From positions 1 through 33,616 of the IMG/VR virus record IMGVR_UViG_2778261222_000001: DNA of 33,616 bases. One strand, written 5' to 3'. This document shows, in pieces, positions 18,461 through 33,616 of the stretch. Position numbers and translations under genes: made by a program. Positions within the stretch are counted from its first letter, which is position 1; each line of letters begins with the position of its first letter. The notes beneath the pieces were generated by a model. That model was not told where the DNA came from. It was given only the letters and a program-made list of their open reading frames with translations, and ran no database searches. Origin of the DNA: a virus. Taxonomy: Duplodnaviria > Heunggongvirae > Uroviricota > Caudoviricetes.

Positions 18461-20024
18461 GACCGGTGTCCCCCAGCGCACGCGCCTTAAAGCACACCTC
18501 CGCCAGTTGCAGGGCAAAGTCGTCCGCGTTCAGCGTTTCCTGAAGCTCAGGCAGGCGTTTCAGAAAGTCATCAAAACTGTCGCATTCCTGCGCCAGTGTC
18601 AGCACCGGGTTCGTGAACGCTTCGCCTGTTTTCTGCCAGTCACGCAGGGCATCATCCACCATCTGTGCCAGTTCGTCGGGGTGTTCCCGGTTCAGGGCGA
18701 CGCGCTCGCGGTTCATCGCCACATCACCTGACATTCCGGCAGAAACCGGATGCAGAACATCAGCCCCTTCGTCCGGTTCAGCAAGGCCGAACCGGTCCCG
18801 CAGCTCCGATTCCTGAACCCGCATCCCCCGGTCAATCAGCGGCACCAGAGCATCTGTCAGCGCCTTCAGATCTTCTGCTTCACTGATACGCAGAACAACA
18901 CGGGGGTAGTGCGCCTGTGGCCCGTAGTTGGCCTCGATATAGGGACGCACCAGATATTCATTCAGCGTGTTAGCCAGCTGTCGCGCGTCCCAGCGCACAA
19001 TGTCCATGCGCACCTGATTGTGCACGTCCGCCTGTGAACGCGAACTGCCGTTATCCGTGGTCATGGTCTGCCCCAGCACAGCCTTACTGATTTGTGCATC
19101 ACACCATTCCGCCATTTCACGGAACAGTGCGCCGCCGTTATTCCGGCTGGCGGTTTCCTTCATCTCCAGTTGCATGGACTGCGGAATGGCACACCCTGCA
19201 TCCGAGGCAATGGAGGCAATCGCATCAATCAGTACGCGGATTTGCTCCTCCGTGGCGTTGGGACCGTATTTCCCCACCGTCACCGGAATGCCGAATTTTT
19301 CCGCGAATGCCCACCAGTCACGCACGGTATAGGATTTCAGCATGTACATCACCGCCACCAGACGGGCCAGACCGTTACGCAGCGGCAGACCGGATTTCAG
19401 GCGCGGCTGGTGAACAATGAATTTTCCCGGTGTCAGCGGTACGCCATCCACCGGTTCGTCATCCGTCAGCAGGCGGAACTGGCGCAGCGTGGGTTTTTCG
19501 GCTTTCAGAAAACGGGGATCAACCCACTCATAATCACGGGGCACCCAGTGGTTATTGCGGGTGTTCCACAGAATTTCACAGACCGCCACGCCTTTCCCCA
19601 GCCCGTCAAGCAGATCAAACATCAGCTCGGGGATTTGCGGCGCGGCCATCAGCTCACGGATGGCATCCGCCAGCTGCACATCGGCATCGTCGTCACTGGC
19701 AGCCACCACCACCGGCTCGATACCCGCCACCGTCAGCTTGCGGGTGCGCAGTACCGAGGCGTAATGCAAATCGCGTTCTTCCATCTCTTCGGCAAGGATA
19801 AAAAAATCACGCGTGATGCCGTCGGCGGCATTGCGCAGAATGCCTGCCAGCCTGCCGGGATTCAGCCCGGAAGCAATGCTGATGCCCGGCGAGGCCGAGC
19901 GCACGCCAGCCTGACGCGGACGGGCCTGTATTTCATCGAGCGTCTCTTTTTTGAGCCTGTCTTCCTCACCGGTTGCCGGGTTCAGCAGACGGCGAACGGC
20001 CCCGGCCAGTTGTTTCAGGTTCAC
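18453..20024 (-). CDS. Portal protein (Mu H-like)
   Basis: 523 aa; GTG start overlapping the terminase stop (GTGA) with GAGGGAGG Shine-Dalgarno; position after the large terminase. Confidence 0.85.
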   Translation of the reverse strand: MNLKQLAGAVRRLLNPATGEEDRLKKETLDEIQARPRQAGVRSASPGISIASGLNPGRLAGILRNAADGITRDFFILAEEMEERDLHYASVLRTRKLTVAGIEPVVVAASDDDADVQLADAIRELMAAPQIPELMFDLLDGLGKGVAVCEILWNTRNNHWVPRDYEWVDPRFLKAEKPTLRQFRLLTDDEPVDGVPLTPGKFIVHQPRLKSGLPLRNGLARLVAVMYMLKSYTVRDWWAFAEKFGIPVTVGKYGPNATEEQIRVLIDAIASIASDAGCAIPQSMQLEMKETASRNNGGALFREMAEWCDAQISKAVLGQTMTTDNGSSRSQADVHNQVRMDIVRWDARQLANTLNEYLVRPYIEANYGPQAHYPRVVLRISEAEDLKALTDALVPLIDRGMRVQESELRDRFGLAEPDEGADVLHPVSAGMSGDVAMNRERVALNREHPDELAQMVDDALRDWQKTGEAFTNPVLTLAQECDSFDDFLKRLPELQETLNADDFALQLAEVCFKARALGDTGHA

Positions 20025-21556
20025 AGTAAGCCTCCCTCATTTTTCAGTCCGCGTGTCAGCTTCATCTGGCGGCGCACGTTGCGTTCTTCCGGTTTCGCCG
20101 GGCGGTTCAGGCGGTGCAGCTCGTAACGGTGGCAGTCATCCTTGCTGGCAAGGAAGCCCAGGAAAATGGCCACAGCGGCGTCGCCGTGACGTTTGTGACC
20201 GTCGCTGCCTTTGGTTCGTGAATCATCAATGCCGGGAACGCCACGCAGTAACTGAATGGCCCCGAGGTCATTGATCACGTCTTCATGCTTCGGAAGGATC
20301 AGCTCATCATCTTCAAACGCTGCACGGAACCGGGGCATGTTTTCGCGGTAGAACGCCACGGACAGCATCACCTGTTCCACTTCATCGCCGTACCGCTCCG
20401 CCGCCTGTTCTGCCAGATACTGACCGTTCCCCCGCGCATCCATTTTGATACCGTCACGACGGGGCAGACGATCGCAAAGCCAGAACAGCACCTGCTCCTG
20501 CTGTTTAAACGGCACATTGCCAAGCTCAACCAGGAACGGCACCTCGCGGGTGGTGTCATCGTTCACCGTCACCGGGGCCAGTACGGTCAGGTCACCCGAA
20601 CGCGCAAAGTCTTCCCCCAGACAGTGGCGCAGATTCTTCGGGAGTTTTTTCAGCTTGGGACGCACCACCGTTTCCAGCCATTCCCGGATATCTGCCCGGC
20701 GCTGGCTTTCCGTCAGTGCGTTAAATTCCGGTGTACCGGTAAAACGCAACACTTTTCCGGTTCCACGGGCCGCACGCTCACGCAGTGAGCGGGGGATATA
20801 CGTGCCGCCGCCGTTTTTCGGGACGCAGTAATACTCCTCCAGCGCATCTTCGCGGGTGGCGGTATTTCGCAGCAGGCCTTCTTTCCATTCCGCCTCGGCT
20901 TCCGGTGACCACACCATGCCGCGCACCTGACAGATACGCCGGTACAGCCCGTCATTGCAGGCGTCATCCAGCGTGATGGTGTGAATGCGGTAATCCCGTT
21001 TTCCTGCGCGGCTTTCCTGAATCAGCTGGTTAAACAGGTTGTCCACGCCGTCATGGGTGGAAATAAGGCGAATTTTGCCGCCCCATGTTTTCAGCGGCAG
21101 CACAGCCTTCAGCAGCTCGTCCAGTTTTTCATGGAACGCGGCCTCGTCGATGGTGACATTCCCCTGCATCCCGCGAATGTTGCTCGGGTTGCTGGACAGT
21201 GCCTTGACCTTAAAACCGCTGGCGAAGTACACGACGAACGTCAGAATGTCCTTGTCTTCGTCGGTGATCACTTCCTCGCAGATTTCTTCCGCTGCCGCAT
21301 TAAACGCTTTCGCCCACATCGCCACGGCGTCGATAAATTCGCGGGCCATCTCCTTATTCGAACCGATATAAAAGTGATCGCGCCCGCCGTCTTCCTTCTT
21401 CAGTGATGCCGTCAGTGCCGCATCCGCAGCTTCCGCCCAGGTTAAACCGGTACGGCGGGATTTCTCGGCGATTTTCAGGTCGGCATCATCCGCCACCCAG
21501 CGTTTCTGATACGGCAGCAGAACATCATATTCACTGAACGTGTCCATTTGTGTCAT
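20021..21556 (-). CDS. Terminase large subunit
   Basis: 511 aa; ATGA overlap with the upstream small-subunit-like gene. Confidence 0.85.
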   Translation of the reverse strand: MTQMDTFSEYDVLLPYQKRWVADDADLKIAEKSRRTGLTWAEAADAALTASLKKEDGGRDHFYIGSNKEMAREFIDAVAMWAKAFNAAAEEICEEVITDEDKDILTFVVYFASGFKVKALSSNPSNIRGMQGNVTIDEAAFHEKLDELLKAVLPLKTWGGKIRLISTHDGVDNLFNQLIQESRAGKRDYRIHTITLDDACNDGLYRRICQVRGMVWSPEAEAEWKEGLLRNTATREDALEEYYCVPKNGGGTYIPRSLRERAARGTGKVLRFTGTPEFNALTESQRRADIREWLETVVRPKLKKLPKNLRHCLGEDFARSGDLTVLAPVTVNDDTTREVPFLVELGNVPFKQQEQVLFWLCDRLPRRDGIKMDARGNGQYLAEQAAERYGDEVEQVMLSVAFYRENMPRFRAAFEDDELILPKHEDVINDLGAIQLLRGVPGIDDSRTKGSDGHKRHGDAAVAIFLGFLASKDDCHRYELHRLNRPAKPEERNVRRQMKLTRGLKNEGGLL

Positions 21557-22134
21557 GCGCTAATCCCCAGAATTTCACGTTTGATGGTGTCAGCCGCACC
21601 ACCTGACAGACCGCCCGTTCTGACCAGTTCTTCGGTTTTCTCTGCCATCTCCTGCGCAAACGCATCACGGATCGCTTTCTCGCGTTTATGGCTGGTCATG
21701 GCTGCCGCTTCCAGACGCTGGGCAACCAGCGCCAGTTGCCCCAGCGCCTTTGGTGCTACAGGTTTGTCGTCTTCTGCCATCGACATGGACGTTTCAAAGG
21801 CCAGCGTTTTTACAAACTCCATCAGCAGCTTGCCGACGTCTGACGTCGGCGCGGAACCCAGCTTTGCCGCCCAGACTTCGGCCATTTCGCGGGAGGCGCG
21901 GATTTTGGCCCCGACTTTTTCCATGCGGATGGCATAGCGGTTTAAGCCCGTCCGGCTTAACTGCATCTCTTCCGGCAGGTTGTGTTCGTCAATCAGGGCG
22001 TTGATGGCTTCGCGGATTTCTTCCTGCGTGTGCCGCTTTTCCCGCAGCATCTGATGCAACTGCTCCCGGATGCTGTCCGGGAGTAAATCCACTTTGGAAA
22101 GACGGCCACGGGTGGGGCGTTGTTCATTTTCCAT
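21553..22134 (-). CDS. Terminase small subunit-like protein (Mu gp27-like)
   Basis: Basic N-terminus; likely start is the ATG at 22132-22134 with AGGAGG 6 nt upstream; directly precedes the large terminase. Confidence 0.6.
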   Translation of the reverse strand: MENEQRPTRGRLSKVDLLPDSIREQLHQMLREKRHTQEEIREAINALIDEHNLPEEMQLSRTGLNRYAIRMEKVGAKIRASREMAEVWAAKLGSAPTSDVGKLLMEFVKTLAFETSMSMAEDDKPVAPKALGQLALVAQRLEAAAMTSHKREKAIRDAFAQEMAEKTEELVRTGGLSGGAADTIKREILGISA

Positions 22135-22271
22135 GTGTGCCCTCCTGTTGCTCACTACGCTGTAAACTTTCGTATGCAGATTTCAGCGCGCCACTCTGGA
22201 TTTCCCGCCATGTCAGGTTGTGCGCCAGACGGCGGAGTTCATCACGGGACGCTTTACTTATCGGATTCTTT

Positions 22272-22571
22272 TTACGGTTCACGACGGCCCCCGTCTTCAG
22301 TTCCCGGTGTTTTCAGACCGGCGTATATTTCTTCGCGAACGGACCGGATATCCTTACCCAGCAGTTTCCACAGCCGCGCACATGCCGGTGATGAGCGCAG
22401 GGCACATTTCATGGGGGTATCCGGTGCATCCGGGTTCCAGGGCTTTCCGGTCTGTTGTTCATATGCACGGGCGATGGCGTTTTTCTCAATATCCGCGAGC
22501 ACAAGACAGTACGCCAGCTGCCGCACGACGGCCCGTTCTCCGCGACTTAACGGCTTCAGTTTTCGGGCCAT
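22272..22571 (-). CDS. Hypothetical protein
   Basis: 99 aa; ATG at 22569-22571 with GAGGGA Shine-Dalgarno. Confidence 0.45.
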   Translation of the reverse strand: MARKLKPLSRGERAVVRQLAYCLVLADIEKNAIARAYEQQTGKPWNPDAPDTPMKCALRSSPACARLWKLLGKDIRSVREEIYAGLKTPGTEDGGRREP

Positions 22572-22573
22572 GC

Positions 22574-22867
22574 TCAGTCCCTCGCACGGGGTTTTTTAAC
22601 GCCCGGAACGCTGGACAGGCCGTTTGCCACATCCTCGCCGCTGCCGGTGATTTCAGCCACGTAACAGCCGCCCACATCAGACAGACGAACCAGCCCCTGC
22701 TCGCGCAACCATGCAAGCTGGGTGCGTACCACATCACGGGATACCTTATGACCGTAAGCCTGAAGGCAGGTCTGCAACACGGATTCATTCGCGCTGTCGC
22801 CACAGTCCAGCAGGGAACGCAGCAACACCAGACGACGGTCTTCAGTGAGGATCTCTTTCATCGCCAT
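22574..22867 (-). CDS. Hypothetical protein, possible winged-helix fold
   Basis: 97 aa; TAATG overlap with the upstream gene. Confidence 0.45.
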   Translation of the reverse strand: MAMKEILTEDRRLVLLRSLLDCGDSANESVLQTCLQAYGHKVSRDVVRTQLAWLREQGLVRLSDVGGCYVAEITGSGEDVANGLSSVPGVKKPRARD

Positions 22868-23172
22868 TAATTTTTTTCCTTTAACTCGTTCTCTAATAAC
22901 AAATCACTGATGCGGGATACCTGGCGGATGGATGGCCCCAGCTCTTTGATTTCTCCCCGCAGGTTGCTGATATCCAGTTGCAGGCGGTGGAACTCATCAC
23001 GGTCGGGTAAATGGTGTACCTGGCTTTCCATAACCGACACGCGGGAACGGAGTGAATCAAACTCTTCACGTTTGACGTAGGTTTTCGCCAGAATCAACTG
23101 AAGCAGGTTTATTCCTGTCATCAGCAATGCCCACAGAATGGGCCAGTTGGCCCGGATCATTTCCCAGGACAC
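22867..23172 (-). CDS. Membrane-anchored coiled-coil protein (possible lysis accessory/spanin-like)
   Basis: N-terminal hydrophobic helix WPILWALLMTGINLLQLIL followed by a coiled coil; 101 aa. Confidence 0.45.
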   Translation of the reverse strand: MSWEMIRANWPILWALLMTGINLLQLILAKTYVKREEFDSLRSRVSVMESQVHHLPDRDEFHRLQLDISNLRGEIKELGPSIRQVSRISDLLLENELKEKN

Positions 23173-23384
23173 GTTTTCCTCCTGCGTTCCCGCATCTGTT
23201 GACAGTCAATACAGGTCACCACATCCGGCAGCGCCGCAAGGCGCTGTACCGGAATAACGTTCCCGCAGTCATTGCAGAAGCCCCGGCTGTGGGACGCTTC
23301 TTTTGTCCGCGTCTGCCAGGCTTTAACGACGCTCTGACGCTCGTTCAGAACCACTTCACTGATGCGGTCGATTTCGTCGGTCAT
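23157..23384 (-). CDS. TraR/DksA-family C4 zinc-finger protein
   Basis: CNDC-x17-CIDC spacing (CxxC-x17-CxxC) near the C-terminus; 75 aa. Confidence 0.7.
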   Translation of the reverse strand: MTDEIDRISEVVLNERQSVVKAWQTRTKEASHSRGFCNDCGNVIPVQRLAALPDVVTCIDCQQMRERRRKTCPGK

Positions 23385-23989
23385 TTCGGCCCCGCAGATA
23401 TTTTGTGACGGCTTGATTTGCTGTAACGGGCAAAGCCGTCAAGGGTTCGCACGCCGAGATAGCCCAGCGCAGGGGTAAGCAACATCAGCGTGATATCCCA
23501 GTCCGGTGACGGCATATGCAGCGTGATACCTCTGGCACCGGCAATGGCTCCGGCAATCTGGCCGCAGGAAAGCAACAGCACATAGGCCAGACTGCTGTAA
23601 CAGGACAGGCGGGCCAGCAGCGGGCGCGTCTGGCGCACATAGCTGTCCGTGGCGTTGTCACCATTGCGGATGGTTTCCTGCTGTTCATGGTGTGTGGCCT
23701 GCTGGTCAGCCAGCACCAGCTTCTGCCGTTCCACCTCCAGCTGTTGCAGCTGAACTTTCAGGGTTTCCATCTGCATCAGTTGCTCCGGTGACAGCATCAC
23801 CAGCTTTTGTTCCAGAATGCGTTGCTGTTCAGCCACCGGCAGGCTTTCCCGGACGCTTTCCACCATACCGGCCACCGAGTCAGCGGCGGCAGATGTACTG
23901 CCACCAAACCAGCGCCCGACGGAACGAATCAGCCCCGGCCCGGCTTTCAGCAGAACAGAGGCGATGCCTGAAAGGGTTAACGGATCCAT
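23381..23989 (-). CDS. Putative holin-like membrane protein
   Basis: 202 aa; hydrophobic N-terminal segment, central coiled coil, C-terminal hydrophobic helices; located in the lysis block. Confidence 0.4.
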   Translation of the reverse strand: MDPLTLSGIASVLLKAGPGLIRSVGRWFGGSTSAAADSVAGMVESVRESLPVAEQQRILEQKLVMLSPEQLMQMETLKVQLQQLEVERQKLVLADQQATHHEQQETIRNGDNATDSYVRQTRPLLARLSCYSSLAYVLLLSCGQIAGAIAGARGITLHMPSPDWDITLMLLTPALGYLGVRTLDGFARYSKSSRHKISAGPK

Positions 23990-24387
23990 GAATCCCCCTT
24001 ATGAAAACGGCGCTGATGTTTATAAAGTGCCGCGCAAAAAATACCGCCCAGCCAGAACGCCAGCTGATAAGGCTCCTTCAGATAAAGAATGCCGAATGTC
24101 AGCATGAAAAAACCAACGGCCCAGACCACCCATGACCACACGACAATTCGAAGGGAAGCGGCCCGGAAACGCCTTTTGGGTTGCAGGCGATAAGGTACGT
24201 TGCCCAGCTGGAAACTGTGAATCAGACAGAGTGTCGCGCCGTATGCCAGCACCATGACCGCAAACGCCCGCCATCCGGCAAAACAGCTCGCCAGAAAAAG
24301 TACTGCCGACAGCCCCAGAAACGACCACTGGCACAACATAAAGCGGGAGTAAATAACGCGAACAAAAAGACTATTCATTCTGTGCAT
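23977..24387 (-). CDS. Integral membrane protein (about 4 TM helices)
   Basis: Start at ATG 24385-24387 with AAGGA Shine-Dalgarno; four hydrophobic segments (the track ORF extends upstream with no obvious start). Confidence 0.5.
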   Translation of the reverse strand: MHRMNSLFVRVIYSRFMLCQWSFLGLSAVLFLASCFAGWRAFAVMVLAYGATLCLIHSFQLGNVPYRLQPKRRFRAASLRIVVWSWVVWAVGFFMLTFGILYLKEPYQLAFWLGGIFCAALYKHQRRFHKGDSWIR

Positions 24388-24598
24388 TGAGTTTTTCCTT
24401 GTACTTCTGGCACTGCCAGAAAATGTCCCGTGTATCCACGGAGTTCCAGCCACGCATGTAATAGCTGGCGTGTGTGCCGTCATGGCCGGTGTAGTCCACC
24501 GGCTTCGGGGGCGGGCCTCCGGCCATGCGGTGCAAAATCTCCTGACGCAGGCGGTCACGCCGCCCGGCTTTCAGTGAGGCATCCCAGCCTTTACCCAT
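24371..24598 (-). CDS. Hypothetical small protein downstream of the endolysin
   Basis: 75 aa; starts immediately after the lys stop. Confidence 0.4.
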   Translation of the reverse strand: MGKGWDASLKAGRRDRLRQEILHRMAGGPPPKPVDYTGHDGTHASYYMRGWNSVDTRDIFWQCQKYKEKLNAQNE

Positions 24599-24599
24599 A

Positions 24600-25196
24600 T
24601 CACCCCCGCGTGGCGGACATGATGCCCTGGGGGGTATCGATGATTTCCAGACAGGCGTCGGTCAGTTTTTCCATGCGGTTAAACCAGCCGTTCAGGTATT
24701 TACCCTGGGCGGGTTTTGACTTGATGATGTCGGCATAAAAGCGGGAACGACGGACAATGCAACGGGCCAGCAACCAGTCCGGGGTGGACAGGCTCACGGC
24801 CTTACGGGTACGCGGACCGATGATGCCGTCAGCATCCACATCAGCGGCTTCCTGCAAAATCCTGATGGCTTTTTTAACGCCATGCTGAACCGCCGCATCG
24901 AACACAAACATCGCCACGCCATCAGGCCACTGGTCACATCCGGCAGGCAGCCAGTAATCGCGCCAGTAAATCTGCGCAACCTGTTCGCGGGTCAAATCCC
25001 TGATGCGGGTATCCGGTTTGCCGTCACCGTTGACATCGGTTTTGCCGTCAATCACACCGTCGCGGCGGTCAGAAATGCCGTATTTAGTTTCGCCGCCACG
25101 GTCTGTGGGGTCATTGACATAGCCGCCTTCGATATCAGGACGCAGGATAAAATTCAGCGCATGTTCAAAGGTCGGGGAGAATTTTTGATTTTCCAT
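24600..25196 (-). CDS. Endolysin, GH108-type N-acetylmuramidase with peptidoglycan-binding domain
   Basis: N-terminal motif EGGYVNDPTDRGGETKYGI typical of glycoside hydrolase family 108; AGGTG Shine-Dalgarno upstream. Confidence 0.8.
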   Translation of the reverse strand: MENQKFSPTFEHALNFILRPDIEGGYVNDPTDRGGETKYGISDRRDGVIDGKTDVNGDGKPDTRIRDLTREQVAQIYWRDYWLPAGCDQWPDGVAMFVFDAAVQHGVKKAIRILQEAADVDADGIIGPRTRKAVSLSTPDWLLARCIVRRSRFYADIIKSKPAQGKYLNGWFNRMEKLTDACLEIIDTPQGIMSATRG

Positions 25197-25250
25197 AAAA
25201 GCACCTGTGAAGCAGATTTAAACGTGGTCTGCTTCATGGTGCCGGAGGCA

Positions 25251-25276
25251 TAAAAAAAGCCGGATTTACCGGCTTC
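25251..25276 (-). terminator. Rho-independent terminator (minus strand), copy 2 of the repeated element
   Basis: Same aaaaaaagccggatttaccggcttca sequence as at 17531-17556; hairpin plus seven T on the minus strand, between the moron and lys. Confidence 0.6.
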
Positions 25277-25297
25277 ATTGAATATCAGGTTATTGGC

Positions 25298-25795
25298 TCA
25301 GTTAACTTTACGGGCAGAACATGTAGTCTTCATTACTGAACGTTCAATTTTTATCTTCCAGCCATTTACTGTTTTTTCGACAGGATCATCTTCAGCTTGC
25401 TTTAAATTTTCAACTTGCATGAAATTCAGTGGGGCTGGGGTATCATCGTCCCATGATGTCGGGCGAACATAATCAGGGACAACAAAAGGCTCAAAAACAG
25501 TTTCACATAAAGCAGACGTCATTTGAGCGAACTCGTCGCTATCGGGGCGAACCGGTCCTGTAACATACTGCATTTTTATGTTGATTTCGTTATCTCGCAC
25601 AGACGCCTTTAAATCCTGATATACACCTAAGTTAAATCCTTTAAACTCAGCAATGGCAGCGTCACCTTTACCATACCAGTCGGTATAGTCAACGGATGTT
25701 TTTTTCTGAAAAACATCTTTGACTTTTTGCTGGAATGTATCCTCCGCTTGTACAGTAGTAACAGTTAGTAAAAGAATAAGGGGAAGATATTTCAT
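25298..25795 (-). CDS. Secreted protein of unknown function (moron)
   Basis: N-terminal signal peptide MKYLPLILLLTVTTVQA followed by ED; visibly AT-rich codon usage compared with flanking genes; ATGA overlap with the mor stop. Confidence 0.6.
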   Translation of the reverse strand: MKYLPLILLLTVTTVQAEDTFQQKVKDVFQKKTSVDYTDWYGKGDAAIAEFKGFNLGVYQDLKASVRDNEINIKMQYVTGPVRPDSDEFAQMTSALCETVFEPFVVPDYVRPTSWDDDTPAPLNFMQVENLKQAEDDPVEKTVNGWKIKIERSVMKTTCSARKVN

Positions 25796-26193
25796 TGTTC
25801 GTCCTTAAATAGTTGCATTTGATATTTTCCACGCTCCAGTCGGCGCATTCTTTTGATGGCCTGATATACCGTTTTGTATGTCACTTTGTAACGCTGCACC
25901 AGCTCCGCTACGTTTTTCCCATCAAAATCACGCCAGATGCGCATGTCTCTGATAAGATTTTCCAGTATTTTCCCTTTCGGAACATATACCTGAATCCCAC
26001 CGATATGATTGCAAATCGCCACTACCAGCTCAAGGGAGTGGGCAGGGTTAACTCCAAGCCTTATCAGCTCCTGTCGCAACAGAGCATTCAGCTCAGCCAG
26101 TAAAGATGGAAATCCCGATTTTTCCTGAACATCATCAAAATATTCAAGGATACTGTCGTCCTGATAATCACCAAATAAATCCTGCTCTTTCAT
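25792..26193 (-). CDS. mor: Mor/C-family transcriptional activator (Mor by position)
   Basis: 133 aa; C-terminal region YKTVYQAIKRMRR fits the Mor/C helix-turn-helix as I recall it; follows gemA as mor does in Mu. Confidence 0.7.
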   Translation of the reverse strand: MKEQDLFGDYQDDSILEYFDDVQEKSGFPSLLAELNALLRQELIRLGVNPAHSLELVVAICNHIGGIQVYVPKGKILENLIRDMRIWRDFDGKNVAELVQRYKVTYKTVYQAIKRMRRLERGKYQMQLFKDEQ

Positions 26194-31289: not shown

Positions 31290-33377
31290 TCAGGCCAGCG
31301 GATCATCCTGTTCCTGTATGGCTGCAAGTTTCTGCAAACCCAGCCTGAAATCGCGTTCATAATCTTCGTCGTAATCCTCCTCATAATCCTGTTGCTGGAT
31401 GGTTACCGTATTACCAACCGGGCGATAAACATTATCCAGCCAGGGTTCAGTCTGTTTGTGCTCCAGAATCTGAATGCCTTCATCCTCAGCATCACGAATT
31501 TTTTCCTCAGCGCGTTTGCGCATTCCTTTAATACGCTGCTGTTGTTTGTGATATTCAGCACTGACAGCAAAGGCTGCGCGTTTATTGCCGTTCCATATCG
31601 CCTCACAGATAAAGCTGCCGTCCTTGCGACGTACCGTAATTCGCTCGGCGTCATGAATGTCATAACTGATAAGCACTTTGCGACCGTGTTCGTCACGCAA
31701 CTCCGGCGCGTAGTAAATATTGTTCAGCCACTGAATTTCGCAGCGTCTTACCGGTCGTTCCACCATCGGGCGGAACATGTCGCGCAGCTCAAGATCACTC
31801 AGCCACTCAATTTCGGTGTCTTCTTCTGCTAGGCGTTTTTTTCTGAACTCTGCCGGGCTGTAATGCCGCCCGTTCGGTTTCATCGGCAGCTCAGAATGTG
31901 GGCGGTTGTTGTACCATTCCACGCCTTCACGAATAGCCTCAATAAGCTCCGCCCACGATGGTAGCTCGCGCATTGCAGCTTTCTGTCGGTCGTTCAGAGG
32001 CTTGTCCTGTTGCATGGCGTTAAACGCTGAACGCAGATCACGGTTAAGTACACGCAACGATTCCCGGTCAGCACCCTTGCCAAAATAGGTGCGATACCTC
32101 CTGGCTATACGCATTGGCAGCGTCCGGTTCAGGCGTTCAATAATGCCGCGCCCCTGTGGATTACCGGCAATACCTGTTGGGTGTTTAATCCCCAGGCGGG
32201 GCAGAATACCCACGACCTCTTTGTCCAGCATGTCAGCCGTTTCACCAGAACCGTTATCCGAGTAATACAGAAACGGTTTTCCGTGGTTGCGAATGCCGTG
32301 CTGTATCGCACCGGCAACGGCGAACACGTTCTCGGCAAGGTCAAGACTCCAGCCAACAACAAACCGGGTTCCACCGTCGATCACAAATGTGACTTCCGGT
32401 GAGAATGGACGCCCGTGGATCGGATGTGCACATTTCAGCTTCATACCGTGACCGTCACCAATCCAGACATAATTCACCGGCATAGCTGCCCAGTCGCGAC
32501 GGGTGAATCCTTCAAGCTGACGGTATTCACTGCCGGTAACACGGCCTTTTTGTTTCACCACTTCCGGCAATTTTTTCATGGCATAACGAACCACATCGTA
32601 AGAGGGCATCACCTCTATCATGTAGGGTTCGTCTGCATGGCGACGCTGCCATTCCGCGACAAAATCTTCGTAGGCTTCTGACATAGATCTGCCATTCGCC
32701 TGGCGATACTGCGCCAGAAATTCAGGCAGCCAGCTAATTTCTTCCGGTTTTATTTCGTCGCGTTTTCCCGGTGCCAGTAACAGCAGCCGTTCTGCGGCGT
32801 TCTGTGATTGGTTGTATTTCAGCACCCACTGATAAAGCGGGTCACGACTGATGGTGCGATTAGCTCCACGTTTTGCATTGGCGGTAGCTGTGGCCTGTTG
32901 CAGGCGTTCCGGTAGTTCACCTTTACGGGCTTTTTCGACAAGATAGTTAATGGCTTTCAGCCGCCCGAGATTACCGTCGCTTTCCAGCTTCAGTACTTCC
33001 ACCACCAGCGCAGCCCTTGCTTCAGATACCCGACGCTGATTTTCGGTCAGCGTATTCAGGCGTTCTTCCATCAGTTGTGGCGAACCGCGATATGCTTCGA
33101 TTGCCTGGACAGCATCAGGATTGCGTGTTTTTCTGACAACAGCTTTCACTTCAGAAACATCGTTCTCTTTAGCCACCAGTTGTTCCACATAGCGTTCACG
33201 CAGTGCCTTTTGTGTTATTTCCGGCAGACAATCAATGTGGTATTCAATGGCTTTTGTACCTGCGCGTTTACGTCGGAGATGTTCTGATGAAGCCAGTTTT
33301 TTTATGGCGTACCTCACACCCTGCGCGCTTCCCGGCATACCTGGTAGCCCTACGAGTTCGTTTACTGACACAAACAT
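31290..33377 (-). CDS. A: Mu-type DDE transposase A
   Basis: 695 aa; position after ner and before B; size comparable to MuA. Confidence 0.9.
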   Translation of the reverse strand: MFVSVNELVGLPGMPGSAQGVRYAIKKLASSEHLRRKRAGTKAIEYHIDCLPEITQKALRERYVEQLVAKENDVSEVKAVVRKTRNPDAVQAIEAYRGSPQLMEERLNTLTENQRRVSEARAALVVEVLKLESDGNLGRLKAINYLVEKARKGELPERLQQATATANAKRGANRTISRDPLYQWVLKYNQSQNAAERLLLLAPGKRDEIKPEEISWLPEFLAQYRQANGRSMSEAYEDFVAEWQRRHADEPYMIEVMPSYDVVRYAMKKLPEVVKQKGRVTGSEYRQLEGFTRRDWAAMPVNYVWIGDGHGMKLKCAHPIHGRPFSPEVTFVIDGGTRFVVGWSLDLAENVFAVAGAIQHGIRNHGKPFLYYSDNGSGETADMLDKEVVGILPRLGIKHPTGIAGNPQGRGIIERLNRTLPMRIARRYRTYFGKGADRESLRVLNRDLRSAFNAMQQDKPLNDRQKAAMRELPSWAELIEAIREGVEWYNNRPHSELPMKPNGRHYSPAEFRKKRLAEEDTEIEWLSDLELRDMFRPMVERPVRRCEIQWLNNIYYAPELRDEHGRKVLISYDIHDAERITVRRKDGSFICEAIWNGNKRAAFAVSAEYHKQQQRIKGMRKRAEEKIRDAEDEGIQILEHKQTEPWLDNVYRPVGNTVTIQQQDYEEDYDEDYERDFRLGLQKLAAIQEQDDPLA

Positions 33378-33379
33378 CT

Positions 33380-33616
33380 TTATGCTACCTTACGAACGTA
33401 TCGGCTGGGCCAGATCTCCTCCGGAGCCACACCAATAGCATCAGCAATGATGCGTTCATACTTAGGGCATTTACGATACAAGGCGTTCTTTAACGAATCC
33501 CTGTTTAAACCTGCTTCAACAGATAGAGAACGTAAAGTAAAGCCTTTCACATGTACCGCCGCGACAACATGCGCGGGATGCCAATCCTGTTTAACAACTT
33601 CATTTATAGACATCAT
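33380..33616 (-). CDS. ner: Ner-like DNA-binding early regulator
   Basis: 78 aa; ...WPSRY... C-terminal motif matches my recollection of Mu Ner; ATG at 33614-33616, the last bases of the window; directly upstream of A. Confidence 0.85.
   Translation of the reverse strand: MMSINEVVKQDWHPAHVVAAVHVKGFTLRSLSVEAGLNRDSLKNALYRKCPKYERIIADAIGVAPEEIWPSRYVRKVA

Follow-up and report, generated by a model that had tools for sequence, protein, structure and literature searches.

The sequence analysed here, IMG/VR virus record IMGVR_UViG_2778261222_000001, positions 1 to 33,616 (in the following, the window), is one complete Mu-like (transposable) prophage that runs from Mom/Com at its low end to the repressor at its high end. 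Its genes follow one another in the order Mom/Com, tail, head, portal, terminase (20021-21556), gp27, a lysis block, Mor, GemA/gp16, Gam, B, A, Ner and repressor. The lysis block, with which this analysis is concerned, occupies positions 22867-25196 and consists of six tightly packed genes, all of them on the minus strand. Starting from the endolysin gene, these are:

24600-25196, minus strand: endolysin of 198 amino acids (aa) with a GH108 domain (PF05838) and a PG_binding_3 domain (PF09374).
24371-24598, minus strand: p75, a soluble protein of 75 aa with a net charge of +4, whose gene is separated from the endolysin stop codon by 1 nucleotide (nt) and shares 17 nt with the following gene.
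23977-24387, minus strand: p136, a four-transmembrane (four-TM) protein of 136 aa by hydropathy, with a net charge of +14, basic N and C termini and a basic central loop.
23381-23989, minus strand: p202, a protein of 202 aa with an amphipathic, Gly/Ala-rich N-terminal helix, a helical, coiled-coil-like domain of approximately 100 aa, an invariant QxTIRxGD...TRP motif, a C-terminal TM hairpin and a basic tail.
23157-23384, minus strand: TraR/DksA C4 zinc-finger protein of 75 aa, whose gene overlaps that of p202 by 4 nt and that of the DUF2730 protein by 16 nt.
22867-23172, minus strand: DUF2730 protein of 101 aa with an N-terminal TM helix (residues ~11-29) and a coiled-coil domain.

From the endolysin gene on, a 1-nt gap is followed by overlaps of 17, 13, 4 and 16 nt, and the next gene downstream, which encodes a homologue of Mu gp26, overlaps the last gene of the block by 1 nt. 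The Prokaryotic Genome Annotation Pipeline (PGAP) of RefSeq calls the same six open reading frames (ORFs) in a 97.8%-identical Escherichia coli prophage. Moreover, the gene order is invariant in 80 IMG/VR loci, which belong to enterobacterial-type prophages from many genera and in which p202 has 62-99% protein identity. An initial annotation of this DNA had proposed a lysis cassette at 22867-25196; the cassette stands, with all of the listed genes present on the minus strand and with exact block ends, but the gene list had overlooked the 75-aa ORF at 24371-24598.

The proteins of the window were searched against profiles from Pfam, NCBIfam and PHROGs, for which curated cut-offs in bits are stated where given. 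The endolysin matched PF05838 over profile positions 7-85 of 85 (E = 6e-25, 88 bits, cut-off 21.2), which bears out the earlier reading of this enzyme as GH108-type rather than T4-type. In addition, its C-terminal domain matched PG_binding_3 (E = 2.9e-17), the protein matched phrog_315 'endolysin' (E = 5e-56), and the solved structures 2ikb and 2is5 are related to it (E = 1.3e-21). The prototype of GH108 enzymes is gp61 of coliphage N4, and the catalytic Glu lies in the EGGY motif. In the endolysin, EGGY is present at residues 23-26 and is followed by D-x-GG-x-T-x-x-GI; residues 21-42, DIEGGYVNDPTDRGGETKYGIS, align to HEGGYANHPKDPGGETNWGIT of 2ikb. The N terminus of the endolysin, MENQKFSPTFEHALNFILRPDIE, is charged, and no signal-anchor-release (SAR) or TM segment was detected, i.e. 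no 19-residue window anywhere in the protein reaches a Kyte-Doolittle value of 1.6 or 1.2. As judged from these sequence features, we conclude that the endolysin is a soluble cytoplasmic enzyme of the N-acetylmuramidase type. Because the endolysin contains no hydrophobic segment, a lesion in the inner membrane would be needed for it to reach the murein.

An exhaustive phmmer search with p202 recovered 131 representative homologues. PF11351 (GTA_holin_3TM) was matched at E<=0.01 by 44 of the 101 full-length homologues, with a best E-value of 1.7e-9, and no other family recurred among these 101 proteins. The AlphaFold model of p202, which was built from the homologue alignment, is all-helical with a predicted local distance difference test score (pLDDT) of 91.8 and a predicted template modelling score of 0.72; it contains helices at residues 3-28, 30-47 and 52-63, two long helices at 68-111 and 116-152, the latter with the first hydrophobic stretch, and short helices at 164-177. 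The C-terminal hydrophobic helices comprise residues 124-152 and about 166-185. The top Foldseek match of the model in BFVD bears the name 'Holin of 3TMs, for gene-transfer release' (E = 1.4e-7, probability 1.00, 31% identity). By the positive-inside rule, the helical domain of approximately 100 aa and the basic tail are predicted to be cytoplasmic. The best-conserved part of the protein, D-x-Q...Q-x-T-I-R-x-G-D...T-R-P, is hydrophilic and lies immediately before the first C-terminal TM helix. In total, the profile and fold comparisons support that p202 is a divergent member of the GTA_holin_3TM superfamily in the sense of a superfamily link, not of strict family membership.

In 80 more distant loci, a p202-like gene immediately follows an endolysin gene, the endolysins being of five or more types (GH108, DUF5675, M15, Amidase_2 and Mu gp22-like), and this linkage holds with or without Mu-specific genes. 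In the window, the p202 gene lies two genes past the endolysin gene, and in Vibrio and Shewanella relatives it directly follows a p75-like gene. From this distribution, we conclude that the p202 family is a genuine and widespread component of lysis cassettes. Because p202 is kept by relatives that lack the four-TM gene but have soluble endolysins, we consider p202 the best holin candidate. The initial annotation had left the choice of holin open; it is now narrowed to p202 and its relatives in the GTA/TeaA group, with the four-TM protein as an accessory, and p202 is still a candidate from sequence and fold. In E. coli TD225-C4, RefSeq names the p202 allele (L002, 2882-3490; WP_032239570.1) 'twin-arginine translocase TatA/TatE family subunit'. 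In NCBIfam, the window allele had no Tat match at E<=0.1, and this label looks like a marginal mis-annotation.

The four-TM protein p136 is predicted to have an N-in/C-in topology. It matched phrog_12596, a family of unknown function (E = 1.5e-53), and has few homologues (13 clusters in a word-seeded search). A four-TM protein fills the same slot of ~390 nt in nearly all of the 80 enterobacterial loci, with 27-47% identity, and two E. coli alleles (136 aa and 141 aa) are 40% identical between flanking genes that are >90% identical. Similarly, nucleotide identity to the E. coli prophage L009 falls to 45-67% over 24400-23965 only and is 92-100% on both sides of this stretch. We conclude that p136 is encoded by a hypervariable, exchangeable allele with sharp boundaries. 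The Vibrio and Shewanella relatives do not have the four-TM gene, and neither does the enteric-type locus L068 (1354-2205), where the stop codon of p75 is immediately adjacent to the start codon of p202 (GTGTAAATGGATCC). Because relatives with the same soluble endolysin do without the gene, the four-TM protein is probably an accessory timing factor, an antiholin or a second holin and not the essential holin. We also considered that a longer periplasmic loop of p202 might be tied to the presence of the four-TM gene; however, L068 retains the loop without the gene.

p75 matched phrog_2121 (E = 8.5e-39), has 104 homologue clusters and is conserved in the Mu-like members of the group; p75 is a real conserved gene of the operon, and its homologues carry the precomputed label PF26867. 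Its AlphaFold model is a three-helix domain (pLDDT 84.6), for which no informative structural neighbours were found. In phage T4, RIII acts on the holin T; by analogy, a reasonable guess is that p75 could be a cytoplasmic lysis regulator that acts on the cytoplasmic domain of p202. The phrog_2121 profile (284 positions) matches p75 at positions 3-75 and p202 at positions 91-273. This double match hints at fused or jointly clustered versions of p75 and p202; no natural p75-p202 fusion was found among the homologues examined.

The DUF2730 protein matched PF10805 from end to end (residues 4-98 on profile positions 1-102 of 102; E = 1.3e-30, 105.9 bits, cut-off 24.9) and has 27% identity over 94 residues to Mu gp25 (pairwise E = 4e-12). 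Its gene is the fifth after the endolysin gene, and it is followed in Mu-type order by homologues of gp26, gp27 (PF11985, E = 1.8e-54) and gp28, the large terminase. The first of these is:

22574-22867, minus strand: Mu gp26 homologue, a winged-helix-like protein of the VpaChn25_0724 family (NF050184, E = 7e-36).

With 61% identity to Mu gp26 (E = 2e-42), this protein marks Mu-type synteny; nothing observed points to a part for it in lysis. Mu gp25 is a membrane-tethered cytoplasmic 'releasin' that is needed to free the SAR endolysin of Mu, which encodes the spanins gp23/gp23.1 in addition to gp25 (PMC9239132). DUF2730 genes lie at most five genes downstream of the endolysin gene in 34 transposable phages (Chamblee et al. 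2022, PMC9239132). Just two of the nine families of endolysins in these phages have SAR domains, and the role of DUF2730 proteins alongside soluble endolysins was left as an open question by Chamblee et al. (PMC9239132). In the window, the TM helix of the DUF2730 protein is preceded by one K/R and followed by five K/R within 16 residues, from which we predict an N-out/C-in topology with a cytoplasmic coiled coil, i.e. the opposite of an inner-membrane spanin (i-spanin). We conclude that the DUF2730 protein is a member of the Mu gp25 family, but that it cannot act as described for Mu, because its cognate endolysin has no predicted SAR domain.

We scanned the whole 33.6-kb window for lipoboxes in six frames and from every ATG, GTG and TTG, using a strict and a relaxed rule. 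The relaxed rule recovered all four control proteins, i.e. lambda Rz1, T7 18.7, P2 LysC and Mu gp23.1, and gave one false positive in ~11 kb. No lipoprotein or outer-membrane spanin (o-spanin) ORF was detected in the whole window; the only matches were Cys residues that p136 and p202 carry within their TM helices. One match is LASC in the first TM helix of p136; the other is LLSC, which lies at a GTG codon internal to p202 and in frame with it. Neither is conserved in the other E. coli allele or in Klebsiella homologues, and both were dismissed as chance. Similarly, a Cys/Pro-rich ORF in an alternative frame within p202 (23485-23688) was rejected as an embedded o-spanin, as it lacks a signal peptide and has no conserved counterpart in Klebsiella phage Kp4866-3. 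The genuine membrane proteins of the whole prophage are the four-TM protein, p202 and the DUF2730 protein only. No i-spanin was found among them, the only single-pass coiled-coil protein being the DUF2730 protein, which has the wrong predicted orientation and no partner. Since there is no lipobox ORF in the window, there is also no unimolecular spanin (u-spanin) of the T1 gp11 type. Finally, the PGAP annotation of the whole element, including the Com/Mom end, lists no holin and no spanin. The initial annotation had seen no obvious lipoprotein partner for a spanin and had named a canonical holin with a two-component spanin pair elsewhere in the prophage as the finding that would overturn its view; the lack of a lipoprotein partner extends to the entire window, and no such holin and spanin pair was found in it. 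By contrast, the membrane-anchored coiled-coil protein, which had been brought in as an implied spanin candidate, is the DUF2730/gp25 homologue with charges that predict N-out/C-in. In total, we conclude that by conventional sequence criteria the prophage is spanin-less, which is unusual, not unprecedented.

The start of the operon was placed with the help of two features upstream of the endolysin gene:

25256-25276, minus strand: intrinsic-terminator-like hairpin, GAAGCCGG-TAAAT-CCGGCTTT, with an 8-bp stem that contains 5 GC pairs, followed by a T-run.
25197-25255, minus strand: conserved leader of 59 nt, with 98-100% identity to L009 in two 60-nt windows (25267-25148).

Upstream of 25268, there is approximately no nucleotide identity to L009, and from 25267 on the identity is 92-100%. 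Together with the hairpin, this sharp onset of identity points to an operon start in the 59-nt leader. The hairpin, a strong terminator-like one, would close the unit in which Mor and the moron are transcribed, immediately ahead of the lysis genes. No sigma-70 consensus site was detected in the 25197-25255 leader. By analogy with Mu Plys, the late lysis operon most likely starts in this leader from a Mor/C-dependent (lys-type) promoter; the ribosome-binding site of the endolysin gene is also assigned to the leader by inference.

Gene content, protein families, synteny, the absence of lipoprotein ORFs and variability were computed, and every functional role given here is drawn from homology, synteny and sequence features. 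We propose, with a probability of roughly 0.6, that in a complete Mu-like E. coli prophage the block forms the first late operon, that this operon carries the lysis functions, and that p202 is the best candidate for the protein that makes the membrane lesion. Transcription would start past the terminator at 25276-25256, presumably from a promoter that depends on an activator of the Mor/C family, and the transcript would cover the six translationally coupled genes and continue into the gp26, gp27 and terminase genes. The GH108 muramidase, which has no secretion or SAR signal, would accumulate in folded form in the cytoplasm until the inner membrane is breached, most likely by p202. p75 and the four-TM protein would most likely modulate hole formation as antiholin-like proteins, as timing factors or as a second holin. 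The DUF2730 protein would act otherwise than in Mu, most plausibly by triggering or organising the membrane lesion, and TraR would be a passenger regulator that reprograms the host RNA polymerase late in infection. Finally, the outer membrane might fail mechanically after the loss of murein or be breached by an uncharacterised component.

Several observations weigh against p202 as the lesion protein. p202 itself matched PF11351 with only 19.7 bits (E = 1.3e-3), under the cut-off of 24.8. Its C-terminal helices are moderately hydrophobic and fall below the TM threshold in some relatives, and all TM calls were made by Kyte-Doolittle hydropathy and the positive-inside rule only. A literature search found no experiment on any protein of the cassette. 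Moreover, a p202-like gene lies beside a canonical LydA-type holin gene in Janthinobacterium phage Donnerlittchen and in L126, L132 and L136, and this coexistence implies that the p202 family need not provide the sole holin everywhere. The four-TM protein, for its part, has traits of a holin: it is small and polytopic with a highly basic, predicted cytoplasmic C terminus, its gene lies near the endolysin gene within the cassette and is translationally coupled, its double-Met start, MHRM, offers a possible dual start (M1-H-R-M4), and its extreme sequence diversity at constant topology is typical of holins. Thus, the four-TM protein (23977-24387) could be the actual holin in enterobacterial phages, with p202 as an antiholin, a regulator or a later factor. 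We consider this unlikely, although it has appreciable weight as a rival reading: the four-TM gene is missing in Vibrio, Shewanella and L068, which have the same soluble-endolysin cassette, the protein has no holin-family match in Pfam, NCBIfam or the PHROGs annotation, and a Shine-Dalgarno-like AAGGA is placed for M1, so that the case for a dual start is weak.

The remaining alternatives dispense with a holin, recast the DUF2730 protein or deny the cassette a function. That lysis is holin-less as in Mu, with the DUF2730 protein as the key factor that takes the endolysin through the membrane and with no part in lysis for the other membrane proteins, would fit the gp25 homology, the Mu-type synteny and the fact that Mu itself has no holin (PMC9239132). 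However, the Mu releasin works on a SAR domain that is embedded in the membrane and has Lys residues at positions 6 and 7, whereas the endolysin of the prophage has no hydrophobic N terminus; no holin behaviour of Mu gp25 was found (PMC9239132); and p202-family genes are linked to endolysin genes in unrelated phages that lack DUF2730, which together make this mode of lysis quite improbable. It is next to inconceivable that the DUF2730 protein serves as an i-spanin whose outer-membrane partner is lost or unrecognised. Its N-terminal TM helix and coiled-coil-like domain superficially have the architecture of an i-spanin; against this, the protein is a full-length PF10805/Mu gp25 homologue, Mu gp25 is itself membrane-tethered and cytoplasmic and exists besides the spanins gp23/gp23.1 (PMC9239132), the flanking charges predict N-out/C-in, and the prophage contains no lipoprotein ORF. 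As the window derives from a prophage, and as the related Shewanella MuM16-2 was reported to be apparently inactive (PMC8541194), the cassette might also be decaying in a cryptic prophage and no longer drive lysis. We regard this as highly improbable, since all ORFs of the cassette are intact with operon-like overlaps, the order and p202 are kept across the 80 IMG/VR loci at the protein identities given above, and p202 is retained in plaque-forming Vibrio and Shewanella relatives.

A more far-reaching idea, to which we give little credence, is that p202 and the DUF2730 protein, possibly with p75, could form a machine that exports the soluble muramidase and breaches the outer membrane without a spanin or a SAR endolysin. 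Two observations point weakly in this direction, i.e. p202-like genes occur in the usual position of spanin genes, sometimes beside a canonical holin gene, and in 54 of 80 diverse p202-type loci the same strand carries no lipobox ORF within 2.5 kb; most of the matches in the other 26 loci look spurious. If such a machine existed, DUF2730 proteins would be general triggers of membrane lesions and not specific 'releasins', and p202-family proteins would do more than a simple holin does. In non-Mu phages (Donnerlittchen, L089, 1708-2962; L126, L132 and L136), a p202-like gene follows the genes for a LydA-type holin and an endolysin, where spanin genes usually sit, and no lipoprotein ORF was found near it in L089. 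Small lipoprotein ORFs of 70-76 aa were observed near distant p202-type cassettes in L117 (2935-3165), L118 (2708-2932) and L120 (2958-3170), and further ORFs of this kind are present in L140-L144 (e.g. L140, 5608-5832) and in L155 (5685-5909); one group of these is located immediately upstream of a GH108 gene, with a Pro-rich sequence behind the Cys of the lipobox. By their sequence features, these lipoproteins may be o-spanins or u-spanin-like, and they argue against p202 as a universal spanin substitute; a role of the p202 family as spanin substitute across phages is suggestive only. Vibrio phage vB-Vv-ZX4290 has, upstream of its late activator, a gene (L005, 707-1279) for a lipoprotein of 190 aa with the lipobox LAGC; for an o-spanin, this protein would be too large and its gene too far from the cassette.

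Compared with Mu (PMC9239132), the prophage has the same transposable-phage late operon that is headed by an endolysin gene and has DUF2730, gp26, gp27 and large terminase genes downstream. By contrast, the Mu endolysin is a SAR lysozyme while that of the prophage is a soluble GH108 muramidase, and the slot between endolysin and gp25, which in Mu contains a two-component spanin, contains p75, the four-TM protein, p202 and TraR in the prophage and no lipoprotein. Moreover, Mu is holin-less, whereas the cassette of the prophage would need an export route for a cytoplasmic enzyme. The module is shared by Klebsiella phage Kp4866-3, Shewanella MuM16-2 and the Vibrio phages of the 1.028.O type, Martha 12B12 and vB-Vv-ZX4290, all of which have endolysin, p75-like, p202-like, TraR, DUF2730, gp26 and small terminase genes. 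The Vibrio and Shewanella relatives have p75-like proteins of 86-90 aa and differ from the prophage in that they have no four-TM gene, in that their endolysins are of the GH108, DUF5675 or L,D-transpeptidase-like type, and in protein identities of 26-45%. Martha 12B12 and the 1.028.O-type Vibrio phages have been noted as DUF2730 carriers with non-SAR endolysins (PMC9239132). Thus, this type of cassette is already represented, uncharacterised, in cultured Vibrio phages.

p202 is also comparable to two PF11351 members with an experimental link to lysis. Lysis and release of the Rhodobacter capsulatus gene transfer agent (RcGTA) require the rcc00555-rcc00556 'endolysin-holin' locus, in which rcc00556 is the PF11351 member (PMC5026251), and ICP1 TeaA is described with proton motive force collapse and triggering by dinitrophenol (PMC7182436). 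p202 has a remote sequence and fold relation to both proteins, and like theirs its gene lies close to an endolysin gene. Unlike rcc00556 and TeaA, p202 has as its core the QxTIRxGD...TRP motif and a long predicted cytoplasmic helical domain, with a PF11351 score below threshold. Moreover, p202 is accompanied by p75, the four-TM protein and the DUF2730 protein, none of which is linked to RcGTA or ICP1 lysis in the passages considered of these two reports (PMC5026251, PMC7182436). A Gram-negative phage lysis cassette without a recognisable spanin also has a parallel in coliphage phiKT, which, as summarised in a preprint on LambdaSo, is spanin-less and encodes the 'disruptin' gp28 (10.1101/2024.01.23.576932). 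Unlike in phiKT, no short, strongly cationic amphipathic peptide of the disruptin type is evident in the prophage, p75 being a predicted folded three-helix domain.

The prophage provides a case native to E. coli of a DUF2730 protein with a non-SAR endolysin, in a cassette that is also widespread in Klebsiella, Citrobacter, Yersinia, Serratia and others. The stretch 22500-25900 is present in 46 of 5426 complete E. coli genomes at 93-98% identity, and standard coliphage lysis genetics is therefore directly applicable; a megablast search of the region against 50,697 cultured phage records gave no match. The cassette links the DUF2730 question to a broad, barely studied family that is related to the RcGTA and ICP1 holins, and it adds a natural spanin-less system with an unexplained breach of the outer membrane. 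Finally, better provisional names are now possible for the five genes labelled 'hypothetical' or misnamed, and 'spanin' is not a suitable name for the DUF2730 protein.

The zinc-finger protein encoded between p202 and the DUF2730 protein matched PF01258 (E = 7.5e-11, 42.3 bits, cut-off 24.9), TIGR02419 (61.4 bits, cut-off 59.7) and phrog_54, so that the TraR-like zinc finger previously noted as embedded in the cassette is confirmed above both curated cut-offs. Its cysteines are arranged as C37-x2-C40 and C58-x2-C61, and its N terminus, MTDEID, is acidic (D3, E4, D6). DksA-like regulators of the F-plasmid TraR and lambda Orf73 type are reportedly the subject of work by Gopalkrishnan et al. (PNAS, 2017). 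The protein resembles F-plasmid TraR and lambda Orf73 in its length of ~75 aa, its C4 zinc finger, its acidic N-terminal tip and its membership in TIGR02419, the 'phage/conjugal plasmid TraR family'; unlike theirs, its gene lies inside a late lysis operon, between two membrane-protein genes. The TraR gene has the same position in the Klebsiella, Vibrio and Shewanella relatives and is missing from Mu and from the Mu-like locus L092. A correspondence to Mu gp24 was considered and rejected, as there is no similarity. TraR would thus be a co-transcribed regulator that acts at the secondary channel of RNA polymerase and not a lysis protein.

Upstream of the lysis operon, one further gene lies between Mor and the hairpin:

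25298-25795, minus strand: p165, a secreted protein with a signal-peptide-like N terminus and without a lipobox, encoded at 43% GC.

In the 80 related loci, the slot at 25268-25800 is empty or is occupied by unrelated secreted proteins of ~160-178 aa or by three-TM proteins of ~108 aa. We conclude that 25268-25800 is a variable moron slot outside the lysis operon. p165 was considered as a lysis or outer-membrane factor and rejected, because sister prophages have either nothing or unrelated genes in this slot, a terminator follows the gene, and its GC content is low. p165 is weakly similar to proteins encoded in the equivalent slot of Vibrio phages.

On the other side of the lysis operon, positions 22124-22571 contain two small ORFs between gp26 and gp27 that are without counterparts in Mu and encode basic soluble proteins (99 aa with a net charge of +7, and 52 aa with a net charge of +5); the 52-aa ORF is missing from several sister prophages. 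Positions 1-859 and 33000-33616 of the window are the outer ends of the prophage, i.e. the Mom/Com end and the repressor end, respectively. Strain SA53-3 has the same element at a site between ynfC and ynfD, with an inserted IS3 beside the tail-fibre gene.

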